From a bacterium (GTDB taxonomy: Bacteria; UBA9089; CG2-30-40-21; SBAY01), in assembly GCA_040757115.1 (NCBI GenBank), contig JBFLYA010000014.1:1-33168 (forward strand): DNA of 33,168 nucleotides, read 5' to 3'. The position numbers were made by a program, and so were the translations under genes. Below, piece by piece: positions 898 to 33,028 of the stretch; position 1 is the first letter of the stretch, and every line of letters begins with the position of its first letter. The notes under the pieces were generated by a model. It was given only the letters and a program-made list of their open reading frames with translations. It did no database searches and was not told where the DNA came from.

Positions 898-1134
898 GTA
901 AGCGTTCAGGTGGTGTAACAAAAGGAGATGTGGAGATTAAGGAGATAGGGAGATATTATTAAAAAAATTGAAATTAATAGAAACTAATAGAAATTTATGG
1001 AAATTTGTTGTTTTCCACAATCAATTTCTACCTATTTCTATAAATTTCAATCTATTTCTATTATCTTATCTCCATATCACTCTTATCTCCTTATCCCCTT
1101 TCTTACACTTTTGATATATAGCCTGAACGGTTAC
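898..1134. mobile_element. MITE-like element, GTAA(G/C)CGTTCAGG...CCTGAACGGTTAC family, copy 1
   Basis: 13-bp TIR; near-identical copy at 27024-27259 and partial copy at 32956-33028. Confidence 0.9.
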
Positions 1135-2982: not shown

Positions 2983-3139
2983 CTTTTCGTTCCTTGTAAC
3001 TTTATTATATTTCACCACAGAGACGCAGAGAGCGCGGAGAGTAAGATTTCCTCTTCTAAACCTAAAACCATTCTTCTCATTCCATGTTTTAGCACATACT
3101 TTAAAATCCTAAATTCCAAATTCTACATTGGAATTTATT

Positions 3140-3560
3140 GGTGGTGTCTTAATCTAGCATAAAGGTTAAAATAGTGTATAGGGTTCTGCAAAATAGGATT
3201 TGAGGGAGACAACAAATAAATATCAAATATAAATATCAAAATGCAAAATTACAAATCAAATTTCAAAAAGGACGGGACGGTTCCTTTTATCGTTTTTCCT
3301 ATGATTTTTGTTGGAAATTGGAAATTAGAAATTGGGCTTTTGTCTCTCTCCCTAATTTCCAATTTCAATCCGCAATCTTTCAAACAAAAGTGAACCGTCC
3401 CAAAAGGATTTCTATTTTAACGCTGAAAGGAAAGAGATAATTTTACATTTTGATATGTAATTTTTATATTTGCTTTTTGCATTTTGCTCTTTGGAGGAAA
3501 TCCCTTTTGGACACCAAATCTGCATAGATTTCACTATTAGAGTTATTTTCAGACACCACC
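3140..3560 (+). mobile_element. MITE-like element, GGTGGTGTCT TIR, 8-bp TSD, copy 1
   Basis: GGTGGTGTCT...AGACACCACC flanked by AATTTATT on both sides; inverted copy at 22760-23262. Confidence 0.92.
3274..3401. mobile_element. Nested mini-element GGGACGGTTC...GAACCGTCCC
   Basis: 10-bp perfect TIR, flanks AAAAGGAC/AAAAGGAT, internal GGAAATT/AATTTCC 7-mer hairpin; absent from copy 2 of the host element. Confidence 0.8.
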
Positions 3561-3636
3561 AATTTATTTATCCACGGATTAATTCATTTATATTCATCTT
3601 CTCTGCGTTCTCTGTGCCTCTGCGGTAAATAGTTGT

Positions 3637-7618: not shown

Positions 7619-7761
7619 AAAAATCGGGGTTCGGAACTCGGGACTCGGGGTTCGGGACTCGGGAATAAAAGAATCCCCGACCCCCGAAATCGGAACCCCG
7701 AGTGCCCGAATCCCGATTTTCATCATCCTTGTGAGCCGTAAGACTAAATGAGGGTCTCTCC
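7619..7761. repeat. CTCGGGA 7-mer hairpin plus one ATTTTCAT-type structured repeat
   Basis: ATTTTCATCATCCTTGTGAGCCGTAAGACTAAATGAGGGTCTCTCC (7716-7761) resembles the repeats at 15843-16506. Confidence 0.7.
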
Positions 7762-14393: not shown

Positions 14394-15713
14394 TTATAAC
14401 ATATATCTTCTTAATCTAATATTTAAAAGTATGCCTAAAGAAACCATAGTGATACAGAGTGAAGAGCCACCATAACTTACCAGAGGTAAGGTTAGACCGG
14501 TTACCGGCATTATACTCAGAGATATACCAACATTCATAAAGACCTGGACAGCAATCATAGTAATTATCCCCGAGGCTAATAAACAACCAAAATTATCCCT
14601 TGAAGAAAAGGCAATATAAATACCGCGGTAGATAATAATTAAAAAGAGCAATAAAGTAGTAATTACCCCGATAAATCCTAATTCTTCCCCAATAACTGAG
14701 AAGATGAAATCAGATTGACGCTCAGGTAAAAAACCCAGTTGACTTTGTGTCCCTCGAAAAATTCCTTTACCCAGTAGTCTACCGGAGCCTATGGCGATTT
14801 TAGATTGAATAATATTATACCCGGCGCTTAAAGGGTCAATCCCGGGGTCAATAAATACCACAAGTCGTTTTCTTTGATAATCCTTTAAAAAACCATTGGC
14901 AACTAACGAAACAAGAAGGCTGATACTGATGATTCCTAGTATTAACCCAAATTTATTAAAGGTAATACTCCTTCTAAATAATTTTGTCATATAATATATG
15001 GTTACTGTAAGTCCCGATAGACAAAGTAAAGAGATTAAAGTATGTTTAAATGAACTAATAGACCGATATAGAAAATGGATAACAGGTATTTTATGAACTA
15101 TCTGAAGTTGTTCCCAGCTTAAAAATAGGGTAAAAACCATAATTAAAATACTTATCGAGGTCAATGAAACTAAATAGATTGGTTTAGCCCCTGTGATGTA
15201 AAACATAACTAATACTACCGGGAAAAAAACTAATGTAGTTCCCACATCAGGCTGCATCAGAATAAGAAATATCGGTAAGGCAACTAATCCTATTGGATAG
15301 ATAAATTCTTCAATCGAGGTTAATCCTTCTCGTTTAGTCGAAAGGTATTCAGCCAGGATAATAATCGTGGCTAATTTAGCGAATTCTGCGGGTTGAAATG
15401 AAAAAGGACCTATAACTACCCAACTTCTTGCACAACGAATCAAAGGACCTCCCACCAATACAAATATTAATAAAACTATCACCAGAATATACAATATTCG
15501 CGAGTATTTACCTAATAGTTGATAATCAAATGAAACGGCAGCGGTTAACCCCAAAAGTCCTATTCCAAACCACATTGTTTGTTTGAGCCATAAGAAATTA
15601 GAGTCTGAGGATTGAGTAGCACTGTAAATCATAAGTATCCCCAGACAGACAATTAAAATCACACAACTAAAGATAATGTAATCAAACCCTTTTTTTAGAC
15701 TAAAATTAAGCAT
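14394..15713 (-). CDS. rodA: Rod shape-determining SEDS protein RodA
   Basis: QPAEFAK, QPDVGT, GYNIIQSKIAIGSG, SDFIFSVIGEELG, LPLVSYGGSS; downstream of mrdA. Confidence 0.95.
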   Translation of the reverse strand: MLNFSLKKGFDYIIFSCVILIVCLGILMIYSATQSSDSNFLWLKQTMWFGIGLLGLTAAVSFDYQLLGKYSRILYILVIVLLIFVLVGGPLIRCARSWVVIGPFSFQPAEFAKLATIIILAEYLSTKREGLTSIEEFIYPIGLVALPIFLILMQPDVGTTLVFFPVVLVMFYITGAKPIYLVSLTSISILIMVFTLFLSWEQLQIVHKIPVIHFLYRSISSFKHTLISLLCLSGLTVTIYYMTKLFRRSITFNKFGLILGIISISLLVSLVANGFLKDYQRKRLVVFIDPGIDPLSAGYNIIQSKIAIGSGRLLGKGIFRGTQSQLGFLPERQSDFIFSVIGEELGFIGVITTLLLFLIIIYRGIYIAFSSRDNFGCLLASGIITMIAVQVFMNVGISLSIMPVTGLTLPLVSYGGSSLCITMVSLGILLNIRLRRYML

Positions 15714-15715
15714 AG

Positions 15716-16506
15716 TTCTCCTGAAACTCGGGACTCGGGACTCGGGACTCGGGACTCGGGATTCGGGACTCGGGATTCGGGAAGAAAGAAACTCTCAGCA
15801 ATTCCCCCTTAATAAAGGGGGTTAGGGGGTTGTCCTTCTCCCATTTTCATTGCCCTTTGTGAGCCTTGGCTCATGTCCGTTTCCCCTGAAAATGTCTGTA
15901 AGTTATTGTAATTGCTTGACTTAGAAAACCACATTTTCATCGTCATTTGTGAGTCGCAGACTCATGACCGTTTCCCCTGAAAATAGGAAGTAGAAAGTAG
16001 AGAGTAGAAAGTAGAAAGTAAAGAAAACATCACTCCTCCCGCTTATCTCCTTACCTCCCACCTTCTATCTCCTACCACTATTTCCCCTGAAAATCGGGAC
16101 TCGGGACTCGGGATTCGGGAAGAAAGAAACTCTCATCAATTCTCCCTTAATAAAGGGGGTTAGGGGGTTGTCCTTCTCCCATTTTCATTGCCCTTTGTGA
16201 GCCTTGGCTCATGTCCGTTTCCCCTGAAAATAAGGAAGTAGAAAGTAGAGAGTAGAAAGTAGAAAGTAAGGAAAGACAAGCCTCTTCTTTCTCTCTCTAC
16301 CCTCTACTATTTTCATCGTCATTTGTGAGTCGCAGACTCATGACCGTTTCCCCTGAAAATAGGAAGTAGAAAGTAGAGAGTAGGAAGTAGAAAGTAAAGA
16401 AAAGATCACTCCTCACGCTTATCTCCTTACCTCCCACCTTCTATCTCCTATCTACTATTTTCATCTTCGTTTGTGCCCAGTCCCTGTGGGCATGAGCGTT
16501 TCTCCT
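15716..16506. repeat. Array of ~51-52 bp structured repeats (ATTTTCAT...CCTGAAAAT) separated by modular spacers
   Basis: Repeats at 15843-15893, 15933-15984, 16080-16094 (collapsed), 16181-16231, 16309-16360, 16457-16506 (divergent). Confidence 0.92.
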
Positions 16507-21716: not shown

Positions 21717-22649
21717 TTATCTTTTTTTTAAATTATTTAGTTCTTCTTTTGCCTCTTTATTAGCAGGATTTATTTTTAAAACAGTTTTCAACTCCTTTTC
21801 TGCCGAGGCAATGTCTCCTTGATTTTTATGAATCTTCCCTAATTTATAATGGGCTATCTCTGAACTGCGGTTTAATTTAAGTATTGCTTTATATTCATCT
21901 TTCGCATGCTCCATCAAATCCTGTTGATAATAGAGTTCAGCCATCACTGTCCGAATTTTAATACTAATAGCCTTATCCAAATTTGGTATATTAACCGCAT
22001 TACGAAATGCAGATAAAGCATTATTAGGCATTCCCTTTACTTTATATACCCAGCCAATATTATACCAGGCAGAAACATCATCAGGATTAAGTGTTTTAGC
22101 CTGCGTATATTCCTCAATAGCATCATTATACAACCCTTTTTTGAAGTAAATATGTCCTAAATAAATATGTGTTTCTGGAGTTTCAAATTTCCCTTTTAAT
22201 GATTTTTTTAATGCAGATTGAGCTTGCTCGTAATAATCTTTTCCCTTTGCGTATCTACTTAACTTAAAATATGCTATCCCACATTGATAATGAACTTGAG
22301 GTGAGATTTTCTCCTCTTTTTCATCTAATTTAATTGCATTTTGATAATATTTAAGGCTATTTTCAAGTAAAATCGCTACTTCTTTTTCATTTCCCTTGAG
22401 TTCTTCCTCCAGTGCCTTATGATAATAACACTCTCCCAATGAAATATATGCCTCGATATTAGCCGGGTCTTTTTCTAATATCTTTTTGTATTTTAAAGAT
22501 ATATCTTGTTTGGGAGTATAAGTCTTACTTATCCCTAAAAATATAAGGCTGATGAAAATAAGAAGTAAGATTATTTTTATAATAAAATTAGGTCTTTTGT
22601 CTTTACCTCGATATATACTTTTTTTACGGACCGGGCTATATACTTTCAT
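21717..22649 (-). CDS. Membrane-anchored TPR protein
   Basis: N-terminal TM, multiple TPR motifs (AYISLGECYY, AWYNIGWVY, AHYKLGKIH); start placed at MKVYSP after AAGGAG. Confidence 0.88.
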   Translation of the reverse strand: MKVYSPVRKKSIYRGKDKRPNFIIKIILLLIFISLIFLGISKTYTPKQDISLKYKKILEKDPANIEAYISLGECYYHKALEEELKGNEKEVAILLENSLKYYQNAIKLDEKEEKISPQVHYQCGIAYFKLSRYAKGKDYYEQAQSALKKSLKGKFETPETHIYLGHIYFKKGLYNDAIEEYTQAKTLNPDDVSAWYNIGWVYKVKGMPNNALSAFRNAVNIPNLDKAISIKIRTVMAELYYQQDLMEHAKDEYKAILKLNRSSEIAHYKLGKIHKNQGDIASAEKELKTVLKINPANKEAKEELNNLKKR

Positions 22650-22759
22650 TGTTACTCCTTGATTGAGCCTGTGATTCAGACACTGGACATCAGACACAAG
22701 ACTATAGACTCTATTTATGGAGGAAATTAGTGACATTTGGGAAACCATCCTCAAAACTT

Positions 22760-23262
22760 GGTGGTGTCTGAAAATAACTCTAATAGTGAAATCTATGCAG
22801 ATTTGGTGTCCAAAAGGGATTTCCTCCAAAGAGCAAAATGCAAAACTCGTTTATAGTTTATGGTTTATAGTTTATAGTCTATAGTCCTTCAACTATCTAC
22901 TATCAACTATAAACTATCTTTGCCAAAGTTCAGTAAAATTATCTCTTTCCTTTCAGCGTTAAAATACTTGAAGCAAAGATATTACCAAATTCCTCCAACT
23001 CTTTGAGAAACCATACTACTTCCTATTGCTCACCAATTCTTCTTTGAGAGACACTATCCTTTGGCAACTTATCGATGAATTCTATAAGTCGCAGAGTAAA
23101 GTTATACAGTCTTTTCTTGAAGTCCTTTTTGAAATTTGATTTGTAATTTTGCATTTTGATATTTGATATTTTACAGGTCTAACTCTCAGTCATCTCTCCC
23201 AAATCCTATTTTGCAGAACCCTATACACTATTTTAACCTTTATGCTAGATTAAGACACCACC
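22760..23262 (-). mobile_element. MITE-like element, GGTGGTGTCT TIR, 8-bp TSD, copy 2
   Basis: CAAAACTT duplicated at 22752-22759 and 23263-23270; arms match the 3140-3560 element in reverse. Confidence 0.92.
22939..23154 (-). pseudogene. Internally deleted four-helix-bundle protein gene
   Basis: MQNYKSNFKKDFKKRLYNFTLRLIEFIDKLPKDSVSQRIGEQ*EVVWFLKELEEFGNIFASSILTLKGKR*. Confidence 0.78.
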
Positions 23263-23454
23263 CAAAACTTCACTCCCTGAATTTTTCCTAAACCTTACCT
23301 ATGTCCGTGACAATGTCAGTGAAGAAACTCCTTCAACTCATCCAATACTTCCAACTCTTTCTACTCTTTCAACTCTTCCAGCAGAAGTATAGGCAGGTCT
23401 CCTCATCCTTCATTCTTCTGCAATTTCTGCCTACTTTAGTCTGAAGTCTGATGT

Positions 23455-26979: not shown

Positions 26980-27023
26980 ATTGTTAACTTCCTGATTTCT
27001 GCAATAATGATGTTGTTATTTTT

Positions 27024-27259
27024 GTAACCGTTCAGGTGGTGTAACAAAAGGAGATGTGGAGATTAAGGAGATAGGGAGATATTATAAAAAAATTGAAATT
27101 AATAGAAACTAATAGAAATTTATGGAAATTTGTTGTTTTCCACAATCAATTTCTACCTATTTCTATAAATTTCAATCTATTTCTATTATCTTATCTCCAT
27201 ATCACTCTTATCTCCTTATCCCCTTTCTTACACTTTTGATATATAGCCTGAACGGTTAC
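27024..27259. mobile_element. GTAAC-family MITE-like element, copy 2
   Basis: GTAACCGTTCAGG...CCTGAACGGTTAC, near-identical to 898-1134. Confidence 0.9.
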
Positions 27260-27483
27260 TGTAAAATGAAAATGTATAACTGAAAGGTAATGAGTCTTGC
27301 GAAGGACTAAAATTTCCCATTTTTCATTTCCTATTTTACATTTTACATTTATTTTTCCTTTGCGTCTCTGCGATGAATTAGTCTAATCGCACAGGTTGCA
27401 ATCTTTCATTCTTCTGCAATTTCTGCCCGCTTTAGTCTGATGTCTGAATTACAGTTTCATCAAAATGGAAATGGGAAGAAAGA

Positions 27484-30400
27484 TTATGCTTTTAGAAGAT
27501 TTAGGCACTTCTGATACCAGGGATGCTCTCTGGGAAGGGTCTTCTCAAAGATGCTTAATGCCAGATTAAATAACTTAATCGCCTCCTCCTTCTTCCCTGT
27601 ATCACGATAAGCAATTCCTAAGTTCATCTGGCATAAGGCATAATCTGGATGGTTCTGCATCTGGTTATCTTCATATATCCTTATTGCCTTCTGATATGCC
27701 TCTATTGCCCGCTCATAGTCTAATTTGTTCCGATAAGCCTCCCCTAAGTTCATCTGGCATAAGGCATAGTCAGGATGGTTCTGCATCCTGTTCTGCTCAT
27801 ATATCCTTATTGCCTTCTGATATGCCTCTATTGCCCGCTCATAGTCTAATTTGTTCTGATAAGCCTCCCCTAAGTTCATCTGGCATAAGGCATAGTCTGG
27901 ATGGTTCTGCATCTGGTTATCTTCATATATCCTTATTGCCATCTTAAATGCCTCTATTGCCCGCTCATAGTCTAATTTGGCATCATAAGCAAGTCCTAAG
28001 TTCATCTGGCAGCCGGCATATTCAGGATGGTTCTGCATCTGGTTGGCAGAATAAATCTTAATCGCCTCTTGATATGCCTCAATTGCCCGCTCATAGTCTA
28101 ATTTCTCCCAATAAGCAGTCCCTAAGTTCACCTGGCATTTGGCATAGTCTGGATGGTTCTGCATCTGGTTATCTCCATATATCCTTATTGCCTTCTGATA
28201 CGCCTCTATTGCCCAGTCATAGTTTAATTTGCCAGCATAAGCATTCCCTAAGCTCATCTGGCATAAGGCATAGAATGGATGGTTCTGCATCTGGTTTGCA
28301 GAATAAATCTTAATCGCCTCTTGAAATGCCTCAATTGCCCGGTCATAGTCTAATTTGCCATCATAAGCAATCCCTAAGTTCATCTGGCATAAGGCATAGT
28401 CTGGATGGTTCTGCATCTGGTTATCTTCATATATCCTTATTGCCATCTTAAATGCCTCTATTGCCCGCTCATAGTCTAATTCCTTAGCATAAGCAATCCC
28501 CAGTCTCTGCAGTTCATCAGGAGATATTGGCTCTTGAGGTAATTCTTTCTTTTCTTTTTCTTCCTTAAAAGGCAATATTTGTTTTATAATCTCTGTGATA
28601 ATTTCTCTTACCTCTTTGGTTTGGCGATTGATAATGTCCTCATTGGGTGTTTCTAAATACCCGGCAATTATCCTTAAGGGAAAGAGAAAGGCTACTTTAT
28701 CCTTTATCTCAGATACCTCAAGGGTATCAATGAAATATAGGACACTCTGAGGTCTATTTTCTTTTAAAATCTCAATAAGAAGCTGAACAAGGAGACGCTC
28801 AAAGCCTACCTCCTCTTCCTTGATTTTATTCTTATCCAGGATAATTCTGATTTTAATGAGTTTATTTATATATTCTTTCATCCTTTTAAGATTCTCTTTA
28901 AGGGCTAAATCAAGGGTTGCATCCACATAGAATCTAAGTAATAGTGCCAGGCTTGATTTAATCTCTAATCCCTCTTTTTCTAAAAGTGCCAGGTCAGTAA
29001 TCTTTTCCAGGCAGGTTAGTGTCTCTTCATACCGACCAAGTAAATTCAATACTGACACTTTATTTATCAAGGATTGAATATCTTGCGGGTCTTTCTCTAT
29101 CGCTTTATTAAAGCAATTAAGGGCTTGTGCATAATCACCAAACCTGAGAAATGCCTTTCCCCTACCAGCCCAGAGGGAGGGAATATCTGGATATTGGAAG
29201 ACTGCCTGGTTATAATATTCTAATGCATCTTTGTCCCAGGCTATCTTTAATAGCCTTTCTCCCTTATCTACTATCTCTTTTATCTTCCTCTTTTTTACCT
29301 CTTTGAGATAGCTCAGGTGCACCTCAATCAAGTTTCTCTTTTGAAAAGAATCCACATTTTTACATTCCTCTTCCATATTTTCTATCTCTAAATCAAGTTC
29401 TGGGAGTGAATACCAGAGGCTGATGAACCTTAAAAGCCATTCAAACCTCTTTCTCTGAGTAGTAGATGAGCGCATCTGATACCATATTCTAAATAACTGT
29501 TCTACGACATCATAATAGAATGTGCCTCTTTTTTTCCCTTTTTGCACAGGTTTAAGGTATCCATCATCCACTAATACCTTGATCACAGCGGTTGTCTTAT
29601 TGAGGGGGAACCTCAAGAGTTTTGCAATGTATGAAGGAGAGATACCTTCTTCCATATCAGTAATATCTATCTTAGAAAAGCCTGCCATAATCTGGCGTTT
29701 TTGGGGAGATAATGCCTCCATCTTTGCCTTAAAATATGGGGTCATTTCACTGATAAGTTTATCAAAGGCATCTTCTACCGCGGGGAGTTTACCCGCAGTA
29801 AGTATCTGGAATAGAAAGAGGAGTAAGCGCGGATTCCCACCTGTCAAATGATAGATAGACTTAATCCTCTGTTCATAGGCAGCAAAAGAGGTAAGTATTT
29901 CCTGGTGCTCAATAGCGGTTGCCCAATTTTTAATAAAGATAAGACCTTGCTCAACAGGTAGCTCAACTAAATTTATCCTTTGAAAAAGGTGGTATAAGGG
30001 AGCCTTATAATCGATGACCTCTTTGAATACAGTAGCGGCACTACCAATAAGTAGCAGGATACCTTCATCCATAAGGAATGTCCGTAGCCTCTTTAAGGAT
30101 AAGGAATCCATAAACCCTGAACTAAGGATCTGGTCAATATTATCTACCAAAAGTAGTATCTTCCTTTTATTATTAGTGGTGAACCTTTCAAGAGAGGCGA
30201 TAATCTCATCCACTAACTTGCGGTCATCCTTTTCATCCTTAATTCTTGCTTCAATCCCATTCATCCAATCAGGAAGGCTACCTAACTCATCTCTTATCTC
30301 CTCAACGAGCCGTTCAAAGAAACCCCGTAAATTAACCACAGTATACTCCTCTTCTGCAAATTGGAGAGGGAGCCATTGTTGCGGAGACTCTTCCTTTATC

Positions 30401-30597
30401 CTGAAGTAGAGCATCCTTAAGAGATGTGTTTTCCCAATTCCCCTTGGACCAGTAATAAGATAATGTTGTAGGTTCTTGTAGTCAGATTGGGCTTTGATAT
30501 TAGATACCATCTCTTCAAACAATTCTTCCCTGCCCGTAAATGTGGCTTTGAGCTCATCATATTTATAATTTAGTGGGTCATAAGGGTATATCTTCAT
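27484..30597 (-). CDS. STAND-like P-loop ATPase with probable winged helix and C-terminal TPR repeats
   Basis: FTGRE, Walker A GPRGIGKT, Walker B LLLVDNID, TGGNPR; TPRs near aa 450-540 and 42-aa repeats at the C-terminus; start placed at MKIYPY (ATGA overlap), GTG at 30612 is the alternative. Confidence 0.88.
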   Translation of the reverse strand: MKIYPYDPLNYKYDELKATFTGREELFEEMVSNIKAQSDYKNLQHYLITGPRGIGKTHLLRMLYFRIKEESPQQWLPLQFAEEEYTVVNLRGFFERLVEEIRDELGSLPDWMNGIEARIKDEKDDRKLVDEIIASLERFTTNNKRKILLLVDNIDQILSSGFMDSLSLKRLRTFLMDEGILLLIGSAATVFKEVIDYKAPLYHLFQRINLVELPVEQGLIFIKNWATAIEHQEILTSFAAYEQRIKSIYHLTGGNPRLLLFLFQILTAGKLPAVEDAFDKLISEMTPYFKAKMEALSPQKRQIMAGFSKIDITDMEEGISPSYIAKLLRFPLNKTTAVIKVLVDDGYLKPVQKGKKRGTFYYDVVEQLFRIWYQMRSSTTQRKRFEWLLRFISLWYSLPELDLEIENMEEECKNVDSFQKRNLIEVHLSYLKEVKKRKIKEIVDKGERLLKIAWDKDALEYYNQAVFQYPDIPSLWAGRGKAFLRFGDYAQALNCFNKAIEKDPQDIQSLINKVSVLNLLGRYEETLTCLEKITDLALLEKEGLEIKSSLALLLRFYVDATLDLALKENLKRMKEYINKLIKIRIILDKNKIKEEEVGFERLLVQLLIEILKENRPQSVLYFIDTLEVSEIKDKVAFLFPLRIIAGYLETPNEDIINRQTKEVREIITEIIKQILPFKEEKEKKELPQEPISPDELQRLGIAYAKELDYERAIEAFKMAIRIYEDNQMQNHPDYALCQMNLGIAYDGKLDYDRAIEAFQEAIKIYSANQMQNHPFYALCQMSLGNAYAGKLNYDWAIEAYQKAIRIYGDNQMQNHPDYAKCQVNLGTAYWEKLDYERAIEAYQEAIKIYSANQMQNHPEYAGCQMNLGLAYDAKLDYERAIEAFKMAIRIYEDNQMQNHPDYALCQMNLGEAYQNKLDYERAIEAYQKAIRIYEQNRMQNHPDYALCQMNLGEAYRNKLDYERAIEAYQKAIRIYEDNQMQNHPDYALCQMNLGIAYRDTGKKEEAIKLFNLALSIFEKTLPREHPWYQKCLNLLKA
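27622..28503 (-). repeat. Seven tandem 126-bp intragenic repeats (42-aa TPR units)
   Basis: Consensus LGxAYxxKLDYERAIEAYQKAIRIYEDNQMQNHPDYALCQMN, highly similar at DNA level. Confidence 0.95.
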
Positions 30598-32063
30598 TGC
30601 CTTCTCCACCAATCTTTAAGTATTTTGCAGAAAAAGGAATATTTGCCCTCATTATCCTTTTCAACATAGAACTCATCTGATAGATAGGTAAGTATTTCTC
30701 TGAAATCTTCTTTATCTTCCTTGCCTGAATACTCCTTATACCATTCAAATAATTGGCTTTCAGAGACCTTATCCTCAAGGGAAAGGCGTTTTAAAAGACC
30801 AGCTAAGAAGATATATGGATGAGATTGTAATCTCTGGAAGAAGTAAAAGAAGTATTGTTTGTAGTCTGGACCCAATATCTTCTCCTGATATATCCTTTTA
30901 ATCTCTTCTGGTGTTATCTTTTCTTTGACCTCACAAAGAAGCATCTGGATAAAGTAAGGGACACCTTGTCCAACCAGGTTAAAGACCTCTTCTTTGACCT
31001 CATCTTTAATCCTTATCTTCTTTGAAAGAAGGAGTTCATCAATAAATCTTAATGCCTCATCTTTTGAAAGGGGTGGTATCTTAACCTCTATAAAGTCATT
31101 AAAAAACCTATCAAGTGAGTGAGATTTAAGGTATTGATTAAGGCAGACAGAACTTGCGATAAGGAAACGAAGTTTATTCTTCTTCCTTTGCTCAAAGAAC
31201 CATTCAGCAAAGGAGGAAGCCTCTTCTTTTTTAAAATTCTCCATCATATAGATAAATTCATCGAATAGCAATAGGAAATAACTATGGTTGGGAATCCTTT
31301 CAAGGAGCTTTCCCAGGAAATCTTCACCCATTTTTTGCCAGGTGTTATCCTTTACCATCTCCTCAATCTGCATTTTTAAAGAAAGGTTATCCATGCCACT
31401 GGGATTATACATTTCTATTATCTCCTCAAATCCTCTATTTTTTTCTTGTGTGCAGAAGCGAGCTATCATCTCTGCCACAAATCCTTTTGGGTGGTGGATA
31501 TGTTGTAGTTCTAAATGAAGTGTCTGCCAGGCAGGCTTTGGGTGGTCATAGAGGTAATACATACAAGAGGTTTTGCCAAATCGCCGTGGAGCGCTTAAAA
31601 AGATATTTTCAGTCTTAAGCTTTTCCCATAAACCTTCAATAAATTCTTCGCGATTGTAGAAATTATCCCCTCGCACTACTGCCCCAACAATGTTGTTCGG
31701 ATAGATATACCGCTTACCCTGCTTTAGGCTCAAGAGATGTTTCTTAAACAGGTATTCTTTAATCTTTCCGGAGCTGGCATTGTAAAATTCCTCCTCAAAA
31801 AGGCAATGCACCTCTTCCTTAGTCAACCCATACTCATAAAAAGGGAATTGAAGGAAGCTATAGACAGGAACATTCTCCATTTTCATATCCCCGCCAAATA
31901 CCTCTTTGATGAGTGCATTTACCCCTTTAAAGAGGGCTTCAAATCCAAAAGGGTCTTTTATAGATTCTATACCCAGAAAGAGAGGATAAATCTTTTTTTC
32001 GGTTGGAGATTCAATAAGGACTAAAAACCCACCTTTATCTAAAAAATTATCCATTTTTTTCAT
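30594..32063 (-). CDS. P-loop ATPase (STAND/archaeal-ATPase-like) with unknown ~115-aa N-terminal domain
   Basis: GDNFYNRE, Walker A APRRFGKTS, Walker B LLLFDEF, GVPYFIQ, C-terminal ILKDWWR. Confidence 0.85.
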   Translation of the reverse strand: MKKMDNFLDKGGFLVLIESPTEKKIYPLFLGIESIKDPFGFEALFKGVNALIKEVFGGDMKMENVPVYSFLQFPFYEYGLTKEEVHCLFEEEFYNASSGKIKEYLFKKHLLSLKQGKRYIYPNNIVGAVVRGDNFYNREEFIEGLWEKLKTENIFLSAPRRFGKTSCMYYLYDHPKPAWQTLHLELQHIHHPKGFVAEMIARFCTQEKNRGFEEIIEMYNPSGMDNLSLKMQIEEMVKDNTWQKMGEDFLGKLLERIPNHSYFLLLFDEFIYMMENFKKEEASSFAEWFFEQRKKNKLRFLIASSVCLNQYLKSHSLDRFFNDFIEVKIPPLSKDEALRFIDELLLSKKIRIKDEVKEEVFNLVGQGVPYFIQMLLCEVKEKITPEEIKRIYQEKILGPDYKQYFFYFFQRLQSHPYIFLAGLLKRLSLEDKVSESQLFEWYKEYSGKEDKEDFREILTYLSDEFYVEKDNEGKYSFFCKILKDWWRRQ

Positions 32064-32770
32064 TCCTCCTCGTGTAATATCTTTTTGCGAAGATAATCAA
32101 AGAATTCGTCAGCAATATAAAGCAATTCACTCATTGCACCCATTTTTATCCTATCCTTTTTATCTATCTCTTTTCCAATCCTAATCTTTTCATAGATAAG
32201 ATTATGGTCTTTCTTATCCCATGCCTCCTGAAGCATAGTCATAATCTGTAGTTCTACCTTTCGTTTGGTCTGATTAAGGGTTGACTCCAGGATAAAATGG
32301 TATGCCCGATGGGGTCTATCCCTTTCCATAAAGACATAATCCGTTTCTTCAACAATTCTACAGATTCCTTTTATGACCTCATTATCTCTTATAGAGTTGG
32401 CTATCTCAGATATATCAGAGAGATAATTACAGACTATTCTCATTCTGGCAATATCCTCCATCTCTTCGGCAAAATTATCTTGATTATACTTATTTGGGTG
32501 TTGAATAATCTTTTCTACAATCCGTCTTGGGGATTTTATATCCTCTTTACCTTGAATAACCCGAGCAAATTCCCTGTTTTCTTTTTCGCGGTATTTTTTA
32601 TTCAGCGTATTGATGATATCTTCTATTGCAGGCTTAACAGCCCCCAGGATAGATTTATTGAGTTGTATTTGCTCTTTAATGTCCTCCTCCCACTTTTCTG
32701 ATGAAGGGAAATTTGTGTTTATGAATTCCTGGAAACATTTTTCATCTACAGGTTGCTTGTTGTGTTTCAT
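32060..32770 (-). CDS. RelA/SpoT-type synthetase-domain protein (small alarmone synthetase-like), divergent
   Basis: IKSPRRIVEK, EDIARMRIVC, DYV, HRAYH, VELQIMTMLQEAWDKKDHNLIYE; start placed at MKHNKQ after AAGGA. Confidence 0.82.
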   Translation of the reverse strand: MKHNKQPVDEKCFQEFINTNFPSSEKWEEDIKEQIQLNKSILGAVKPAIEDIINTLNKKYREKENREFARVIQGKEDIKSPRRIVEKIIQHPNKYNQDNFAEEMEDIARMRIVCNYLSDISEIANSIRDNEVIKGICRIVEETDYVFMERDRPHRAYHFILESTLNQTKRKVELQIMTMLQEAWDKKDHNLIYEKIRIGKEIDKKDRIKMGAMSELLYIADEFFDYLRKKILHEEE

Positions 32771-32895
32771 CGTTGCATTCCTTTGGTGTCTATATGTCCT
32801 GCTATCTGGAGGTCTATGTAGTTCAGGCAGATAGACATTCAGGCACCAGGTTACTGAAGAGTTAAAATTGCACAATAATTTTATTGCACAATATA

Positions 32896-32924
32896 TTTAT
32901 AGCATAACATATCTATTTTGTCAA
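32896..32924 (-). promoter_or_regulatory. sigma70 promoter for the SAS-ATPase-ATPase/TPR operon
   Basis: TTGACA-17 bp-TATAAA with extended TG. Confidence 0.7.
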
Positions 32925-32955
32925 GAGGCTGACCGAGAATTTTTTAAAAATATTG

Positions 32956-33028
32956 GTAAGCGTTCAGGTGGTGTAACAAAAGGAGATGTGGAGATTAAGG
33001 AGATAGGGAGATATTATTAAAAAAATTG
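32956..33028. mobile_element. Truncated GTAAG-family element, copy 3
   Basis: Matches the first ~73 bp of the 898 element, then is interrupted by a GTAACTATTCACC end at 33029. Confidence 0.85.

Follow-up and report, generated by a model that had tools for sequence, protein, structure and literature searches.

A conserved three-gene locus coding for an atypical RelA/SpoT-type synthetase and two paralogous ATPases, with a possible role in defence

The window analysed here is a stretch of bacterial DNA of 33,168 nucleotides (nt), corresponding to positions 1–33,168 of contig JBFLYA010000014.1 (assembly GCA_040757115.1). Three adjacent genes of its minus strand, called A, B and C in their 5' to 3' order, code for a RelA/SpoT-type synthetase, a P-loop ATPase with an N-terminal domain of its own, and a second ATPase extended by an array of tetratricopeptide repeats (TPR). 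Together they make up a three-gene system that is rare, conserved and apparently undescribed so far, characterized by paired paralogous ATPases, a unique putative adaptor domain and an atypical synthetase. The genes and their parts were located as follows:

32060..32770, minus strand: gene A, RelA/SpoT-type synthetase (divergent small alarmone synthetase), 236 amino acids (aa), single domain
30594..32063, minus strand: gene B, P-loop ATPase with its own N-terminal domain, 489 aa
31680..32063, minus strand: N-terminal domain of B, approximately residues 1–128, alpha/beta, no known family
30594..31679, minus strand: core of B, P-loop ATPase with helical and winged-helix parts, PF01637-like
27484..30597, minus strand: gene C, ATPase and TPR array, 1037 aa from the ATG at 30597
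29278..30597, minus strand: N-terminal module of C, AAA_16/PF01637 ATPase with a degenerate Walker B motif, and MarR-like winged helix
27484..29277, minus strand: C-terminal TPR region of C, TPR families with E down to 1e-57
32896..32924, minus strand: promoter-like TTGACA-17-TATAAA 5' of gene A, read by eye

A preliminary description of this DNA had reported three genes joined by two ATGA stop/start overlaps, and both overlaps were found at the positions given there, 32060–32063 between A and B and 30594–30597 between B and C. The longest frame for gene A in the list of open reading frames (ORFs) extended from 32060 to 32875, with a TTG start and a length of 271 aa. The ATG at 32770, preceded by an AAGGA approximately 8 nt upstream, matched the N-termini of the homologues and was taken as the start of A. 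For gene C, the longest listed frame was 27484–30612. The preliminary description had also provided the operon with its own sigma70 promoter. The motif exists, with TTGACA at 32924–32919 and TATAAA at 32901–32896 on the minus strand, separated by a 17 nt spacer, and a promoter at this place is plausible. The consensus promoter scan, which demands a T at position 6, did not list it, and 15 promoter-like sites were observed in the segment 27000–33168 compared to 19.3 expected in shuffles, so that the motif carries no statistical weight. The domain calls made earlier agreed with the Pfam scans, which gave PF04607 for A, PF01637/AAA_16 with TPRs for C and, for B, AAA matches below threshold only.

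Gene A matched the PF04607 RelA_SpoT model with 46.6 bits (cut-off 27, E 4.7e-12), and the A proteins of two further trios present in the same genome (see below) also exceeded this cut-off. With a profile built from 41 sequences, the nearest solved structures were those of RelP and RelQ (E 9.6e-15 to 1e-10), and the match to CapRel (7ztb), at 8.6e-6, covered profile positions 70–197 only. The score against the NCBIfam RelQ/YjbM equivalog NF053588 was 58.2 bits, below its cut-off of 320. The AlphaFold2 (AF2) model of A reached a predicted local distance difference test score (pLDDT) of 93.9 and a predicted template modelling score (pTM) of 0.89. The family comprised 113 clusters at E ≤1e-10 in 5.8 billion proteins, all generically named. 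Weak matches to A (1e-07), along with TPR matches for C, were present in PHROGs. Fused A-B or longer forms of A were not seen among proteins of 518–2000 residues, which is weak evidence. One homologue with 59% identity carried the NCBI label of a Candidatus Desantisbacteria metagenome-assembled genome (MAG), a hint at the phylum to which the genome of the window belongs; a public sequencing run containing this stretch is a groundwater metagenome.

The arginine of the EIQIRT motif is a defining residue of the synthetases that produce guanosine tetra- and pentaphosphate ((p)ppGpp). At this position the A family showed a methionine in 40 of 41 sequences (EIQIMT) and a threonine in the last one. 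The column of the G-loop tyrosine, the residue stacking on the guanosine acceptor in such enzymes, was occupied by glutamate (20 sequences), histidine (19), valine (1) and isoleucine (1), and never by tyrosine, so that neither of these two strict marks of a (p)ppGpp synthetase is found in A. Residues K79, K87, D106, R109, R111, R155, E173, Q175 and H189 were invariant in all 41 sequences. The residue roles given in passages of the SaRelP study (PMC5794853) were mapped onto the family alignment via pairwise alignment. On this basis, the Mg ligands D106 and E173, the phosphate lysines K79 and K87, the second adenine-stacking arginine R111 and the ribose histidine H189 were kept throughout, and the first adenine-stacking arginine was kept in 6 of the 41 sequences. 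With the Mg and ATP residues intact and the G-loop tyrosine and EIQIRT arginine replaced, A looks catalytically competent, with a rebuilt acceptor pocket.

The core of B contains a Walker A motif PRRFGKTS (PRRxGKTS in the family) and a Walker B motif LLLFDE (hhhhDE in the family), in which G163, K164, S166, D268 and E269 are invariant. Structure matches in the Atlas showed a resemblance of residues 120–489 to PF01637/AAA_35-type models (template modelling (TM) score 0.65–0.70), and the AF2 model of the whole protein had a pLDDT of 89.8 and a pTM of 0.87. The ATPase of C was identified by Pfam as AAA_16/PF01637 (E ~5e-12), and matches to MarR-type winged helices were also observed in this protein. 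Comparison of B with the N-terminal module of C by hhalign gave a probability of 98% (E 1.8e-13, 318 aligned columns), and, judged by these profiles, the two are paralogous. They differ in their Walker B motif, which ended with DE in 35 of 35 B sequences, whereas in C the first position was E (22) or D (9) and the second position was N in 30 of 31 sequences. From this asymmetry we infer that B hydrolyses ATP and that C acts as a binding switch.

The TPR region of C ends with eight units of 42 aa (126 nt), from position 27508 to 28515, with 79–85% DNA identity. These units correspond to the direct repeat family D1 with its 126-nt spacing; they are recently amplified, and the variation between them is concentrated at unit positions 7, 10 and 11. 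At least one TPR hit was obtained in eight of ten sampled C homologues, and none in the other two. Among relatives, the TPR part diverged faster than the ATPase module, and its length varied even between close relatives. Between loci L111 and L120, for instance, the identity was 80% in A, 84% in the B core and 77% in the C module, compared to 53% in the TPR part, with TPR lengths of 520 and 756. Pfam scans of C and of its sampled homologues revealed no effector domain. PF01637 belongs to a STAND clade (signal-transducing ATPases having numerous domains). The layout of the two proteins is that of STAND ATPases and of NOD-like receptors (NLR; NOD, nucleotide-binding oligomerization domain), with a P-loop NTPase possessing Walker A and B motifs, helical and winged-helix modules (by Pfam in C, by fold in B) and, in C, the TPR array in the place of the C-terminal repeat sensor.

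The N-terminal domain of B was modelled by AF2 as an alpha/beta structure with a pLDDT of approximately 78–92. It had no Pfam match in ten of ten diverse members, and no sequence relative was found in the PDB. The possibility of a homotypic adaptor, in which this domain would resemble A, was ruled out by hhalign (probability 0.6%). A search of 1.84 billion representatives with the profile of the domain returned 36 proteins, corresponding to 22 proteins of 447–514 aa with the domain at the N-terminus and 14 entries of 68–281 aa, probably fragments; no other architecture existed among those 36. The length of the segment preceding Walker A followed the presence of A. It was 137–158 residues in A-linked B proteins (median 157, n=46) and had a median of 38 and a maximum of 108 in A-less ones (n=52). 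When the B core was placed in a quick maximum-likelihood tree of 115 rows, the rows linked to A, 45 in number, made up one side of one branch, with a support of 93 in the Shimodaira–Hasegawa-like approximate likelihood-ratio test (SH-aLRT), which points to a single gain or loss. The simplest reading would be that A was at some time acquired by a B-C pair lacking an effector, along with a dedicated domain at the N-terminus of B. This domain would then be the physical link to A.

The same genome contains two further A-B-C trios in the same order (contigs C166 and C412), the A proteins of which showed 45% and 37% identity to that of the window. The three trios sit in three different subclades of the A-linked group; they are ancient paralogues or were acquired separately. 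In the second trio, C (L004, G000:C166, 1362–2936) is broken by a run of N in the assembly, and its TPR region is incomplete. When 61 relatives were scanned, a B match was present in eight genomes, including the one studied here, and outside this genome there were six good loci (in G001, G006, G009, G018, G020 and G024), in all of which B had A on its upstream and C on its downstream side. Metagenome contigs searched with an A-specific peptide pattern alone gave 57 loci, ten of which were too short to judge. Where at least 600 nt followed A, B adjoined it in 44 of 47 loci, the exceptions being L145, L153 and L158, and where at least 400 nt followed B, C came next in 28 of 28. In pairwise comparisons (210 pairs from 21 loci), the identities of A and of the B core co-varied (r 0.87), as genes inherited together would be expected to do. 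Judged from this constancy of order, the trio is a real conserved unit, kept across several phyla. The claim of the preliminary description that the three genes belong together is thereby confirmed, and so is the linkage of synthetase homologues to the ATPase pair in other genomes.

Some metagenome and genome loci deviated from the common pattern. Loci L022 (G024:C178) and L106 displayed shortened A and B frames (91/116 aa and 157/190 aa), with a C gene still long in L022 and of 424 aa in L106, and are probably decaying copies. At L145 (1958–3141), the synthetase is a related one that matched the A profile with E 2e-40 at profile positions 75–239 only, and it was followed by a 105-aa gene in place of the ATPases, a layout resembling that of classical toxin-antitoxin (TA) modules.

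The wider family was explored with the B alignment in one genome per species, which provided 80 loci; the resulting table was counted by hand. In 59 of them B was directly followed by C, and this adjacency of two paralogues upholds their earlier description as a pair. These loci were found in Acidobacteriota, Armatimonadota, Chloroflexota, Nitrospirota, Planctomycetota, Methanomicrobia/ANME (anaerobic methanotrophic archaea) and others. Only six of the 59 also possessed A (one WOR-3-type, four Desulfobacterales-type and one MAG labelled Enterobacteriaceae). Pairs without A, represented by genome loci L026–L088 and by L163 and L164, made up 53 of the 80 loci by this count, and some loci (L078) contained two pairs in tandem. 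Plasmids of Moraxella osloensis and Clostridium tagluense also carried B-C pairs. All-against-all BLAST revealed no recurrent alternative third gene beside the A-less pairs. Of ten genes scanned upstream of such pairs, eight were of housekeeping types (pyruvate kinase, PPDK, MutS2, QRPTase and others) and two belonged to no family.

Among known proteins, RelP and RelQ (PDB 6fgk, 6fgj and 5dec) have the same single-domain synthetase fold as A and a similar size. According to the residue roles mapped above, they have in common with A the Asp and Glu binding Mg, the ATP-phosphate lysines, the second adenine-stacking arginine and the ribose histidine. Unlike them, A is devoid of the G-loop tyrosine, shows EIQIMT instead of EIQIRT, does not keep the first adenine-stacking arginine and is encoded together with two ATPases. 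CapRel (PDB 7ztb) is comparable to the trio in that a synthetase effector is placed under a sensor part. Passages of PMC9712102 describe it as one polypeptide with a C-terminal pseudo-zinc-finger serving as sensor and antitoxin, and with a retained G-loop tyrosine, Y155. In the trio, the predicted sensor is a protein of its own with ATPase and TPRs, another ATPase stands in between, A has no G-loop tyrosine, and no pseudo-zinc-finger domain is fused to its 236 aa.

The toxic small alarmone synthetases (toxSAS: FaRel, FaRel2, PhRel and PhRel2) are, like A, small synthetases encoded in a tightly overlapping operon, and the growth arrest that parts of the toxSAS literature attribute to (pp)pApp or to tRNA pyrophosphorylation would be a plausible output for the trio. 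Instead of the small adjacent antitoxin gene of toxSAS, the neighbour of A is the 489-aa ATPase B or its homologue in the 44 loci counted above; a gene of 105 aa is present only in the outlier L145. The main text of the toxSAS survey PMC7229694 gives no ATPase or TPR partner of toxSAS. In Kaur et al. 2020 (PMC7159879), RelA domains are described as rare effectors of vWA-MoxR ternary conflict systems. These systems are similar to the trio as NTPase-regulated three-component systems with a RelA nucleotidyltransferase effector; their RelA domain is fused, whereas A is free-standing, and no vWA or MoxR Pfam match was obtained in A, B or C.

C resembles Avs (AVAST) and the bacterial STAND/NLR-like proteins by its P-loop NOD-like module, its winged helix and its variable C-terminal TPR sensor. 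In Avs the effector is fused N-terminally on a single NTPase; in the trio C has no effector, which is instead encoded by a gene of its own, and the paralogous, sensor-less B is an obligatory partner. The ATPases are of PF01637/AAA_16 type, and no Avs model of PADLOC matched at E up to 0.1. The Avs-like label of the preliminary description is thus loose, the effector being a separate gene presumably coupled via the new domain of the second ATPase. In sensor-helper NLR pairs, one partner carries the sensor repeats and the other carries the adaptor to the effector. The eukaryotic NAIP-NLRC4 and the paired or helper NLRs of plants, which are also made of two paralogous NOD proteins with sensor repeats on one side and an adaptor on the other, offer a functional analogy only, since there is no evidence of a common descent of the pairing. 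The trio would work like an NLR/Avs-type sensor combined with a CapRel/toxSAS-type effector and is a member of none of those families.

We propose that the trio is a three-component nucleotide switch in which C would be the sensor, B the helper and adaptor, and A the effector, with an abortive-infection-like role in conflict or defence as the most likely one; we estimate the probability of this reading at about one half. In this model, C would be a NOD-like sensor that binds ATP and probably hydrolyses it slowly, and its variable TPR array would bind a putative trigger, upon which C would exchange or retain ATP. B would be a hydrolysis-competent helper without a sensor, pairing with C via the ATPase/winged-helix modules, which are homologous in the two proteins, and holding or recruiting A by means of its N-terminal domain. 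The binding of the trigger to C would alter the presumed B-C hetero-assembly, the N-terminal domain of B would change its state, and A, presumably bound to it, would be switched on. A would then move pyrophosphate from ATP to an acceptor, probably not in the canonical guanosine mode. The product could be an alarmone-type nucleotide or another pyrophosphorylated acceptor and would cause growth arrest.

The distribution of the trio is patchy. Within the phylum, 6 of 25 genomes possessed it, with two of six and one of three genomes in two genera, and it was present in 2 of 201 genomes of the order around the Desulfonema-type genome (Desulfobacterales-type). This patchiness, the several diverged copies in one genome, the fast-evolving TPRs and the amplified repeats were counted in favour of a conflict role. 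In addition, the third trio of the same genome lies near DUF4143/PDC-S01 ATPases and other large P-loop/TPR proteins, type I restriction-modification (R-M) genes flank some archaeal B-C pairs, and a QatD gene stands beside the pair on the Moraxella plasmid. At the third trio (L005, G000:C412, 2–6594), two DUF4143-type AAA ATPases (PADLOC PDC-S01) were found alongside, and an 832-aa protein (HNH-like start, P-loop and TPR-like repeats) and a partial NACHT-like ATPase were read by eye among its neighbours.

Other observations weigh against a role in defence. The archaeal R-M neighbours correspond to related Methanoculleus-type loci and are not independent. The 70 neighbouring ORFs of the trio loci were mostly metabolic or housekeeping genes, as were 124 sampled neighbours of the A-less pairs (the first 124 of a random 150 drawn from 210 ORFs of at least 150 aa, compared with PADLOC). 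No relative of B was detected in 50,697 phage records, and outside the trio the window consists of core chromosomal genes (MreB, PBP2, RodA, CobN and PFOR). The defence reading of the preliminary description finds little backing in this context. By sequence, A lies much nearer to RelP/RelQ, which are non-toxic housekeeping enzymes, than to CapRel or any other known toxic synthetase, and the comparison with toxSAS and CapRel made there is weakened accordingly. Most B-C pairs exist without a recognisable effector, which is unusual for abortive-infection systems.

Finally, no system of PADLOC-DB 2.0.0 matches the trio. A aligned with positions 42–174 of the 349 positions of the candidate PDC-S33 (133 positions, 40.3 bits), which is not a full-length match. 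C showed a weak similarity to mad8 of MADS (31.5 bits, positions 28–175 of 314, ATPase part only), and no other mad genes were present in the operon. In a full-text literature search, no account of a synthetase combined with two ATPases came up, and the combination is not mentioned in the searched text of a 2026 survey of STAND proteins (PMC13581612) and of the toxSAS survey, the supplementary tables of which may list families. The trio therefore does not appear to be a named system, as the preliminary description had supposed. The interpretation given there is on the whole partly supported, and the function of the trio is possibly defence.

A second explanation, possible though in our opinion rather unlikely, is that of a housekeeping or stress signalling module, in which a STAND/MalT-like B-C switch would sense an endogenous protein or metabolite and A would make a (p)ppGpp-like messenger, without any immunity. 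This would fit the position of A nearest to RelP/RelQ, the mostly housekeeping neighbours, the lack of a recurrent hydrolase or antitoxin partner and the wide distribution of effector-less B-C pairs in bacteria and archaea. The MarR-like winged helices could bind DNA, and one ordinary long RelA/SpoT homologue (RSH) is encoded in the same genome, so alarmone signalling exists in this bacterium. A signalling module of this kind is more difficult to reconcile with a very patchy presence among close relatives, with three diverged copies in one genome and with TPR arrays that evolve fast and vary in length.

An addiction module similar to TA systems is improbable. Here A would be toxic, the N-terminal domain of B would be its stoichiometric neutraliser, and the ATPase parts together with C would tune the stability or turnover of the antitoxin. 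The overlapping, translationally coupled genes and the finding of the B N-terminal domain only with A are compatible with such an arrangement, the synthetase with its 105-aa neighbour at L145 has a TA-like layout, and toxSAS TA modules are described in the main text of PMC7229694. However, the putative antitoxin would be fused to a conserved ATPase of 360 residues with invariant Walker motifs, and the constant retention of C represents more machinery than neutralisation needs. In L022 and L106, A and B look decayed while C stays long, contrary to what addiction would produce. As for three unrelated neighbours or false ORFs, a notion for which only the weak Pfam score of B would speak, it is refuted by the A-B-C order and overlap kept across phyla in relatives and metagenome loci, the confident AF2 models of A and B and the invariant catalytic motifs.

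The proposed nucleotide switch, if true, would imply that prokaryotic NLR-like NTPases also work as obligate sensor-helper hetero-pairs, so far known mainly in plants and animals. It would imply as well that one new adaptor domain captured an effector in trans, in a single evolutionary event visible in the tree, and that one branch of the RelA/SpoT fold has rebuilt its acceptor pocket. In its most specific form, this hypothesis states that a prokaryotic pair of NOD-like ATPases, with C as the TPR sensor bearing a switch-type Walker B and B as the hydrolysing helper, captured a free-standing pyrophosphokinase via a unique domain. Having lost the universal G-loop tyrosine, the enzyme would make a new nucleotide signal or modify a new acceptor; the output would be a new immune or stress response, and the system a bacterial counterpart of paired receptors of the NAIP-NLRC4 type. 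Taken as a whole, we hold this form to be tentative and doubtful. The trio could help to decode the wider effector-less B-C two-gene system of bacteria, archaea and plasmids.

The operon is flanked on both sides by copies of one family of miniature inverted-repeat transposable elements (MITE):

27024..27260: MITE copy 3' of the operon, palindromic, 237 nt
32951..33028: 78-nt end common to the MITE family, 5' of the operon (repeat family D6)

The 78-nt end was shared by segments 893–970, 27019–27096 and 32951–33028, and segment 960–1134 was equal to 27085–27259. Three copies are found within the 33-kb window (898–1134, 27024–27260 and 32951–33028). In the 4.3-Mb genome, at least 40 copies with 98–100% identity were counted (523 first-look candidates, of which 40 were scored). 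The preliminary description had noted the operon as bracketed by this family, and the copies are indeed those of one family. With such numbers in the genome and in the window, the bracket says little about the mobility of the trio, and its interpretation as the sign of a mobile cassette was ruled out.

Directly 3' of the operon lies a gene for a TOBE-type ABC transporter. Other repeat families were present in the window, including inverted copies approximately 19–20 kb apart (3131–3565 and 22755–23271). A 7-nt unit (GGGACTC-like) is repeated in short tandem arrays at intergenic positions 7620–7664, 15710–15796 and 16076–16134, near repeats of 128–142 nt between 15756 and 16450. Among the core genes, positions 21717–22829 code for a TPR protein of 370 aa, unrelated to the operon.

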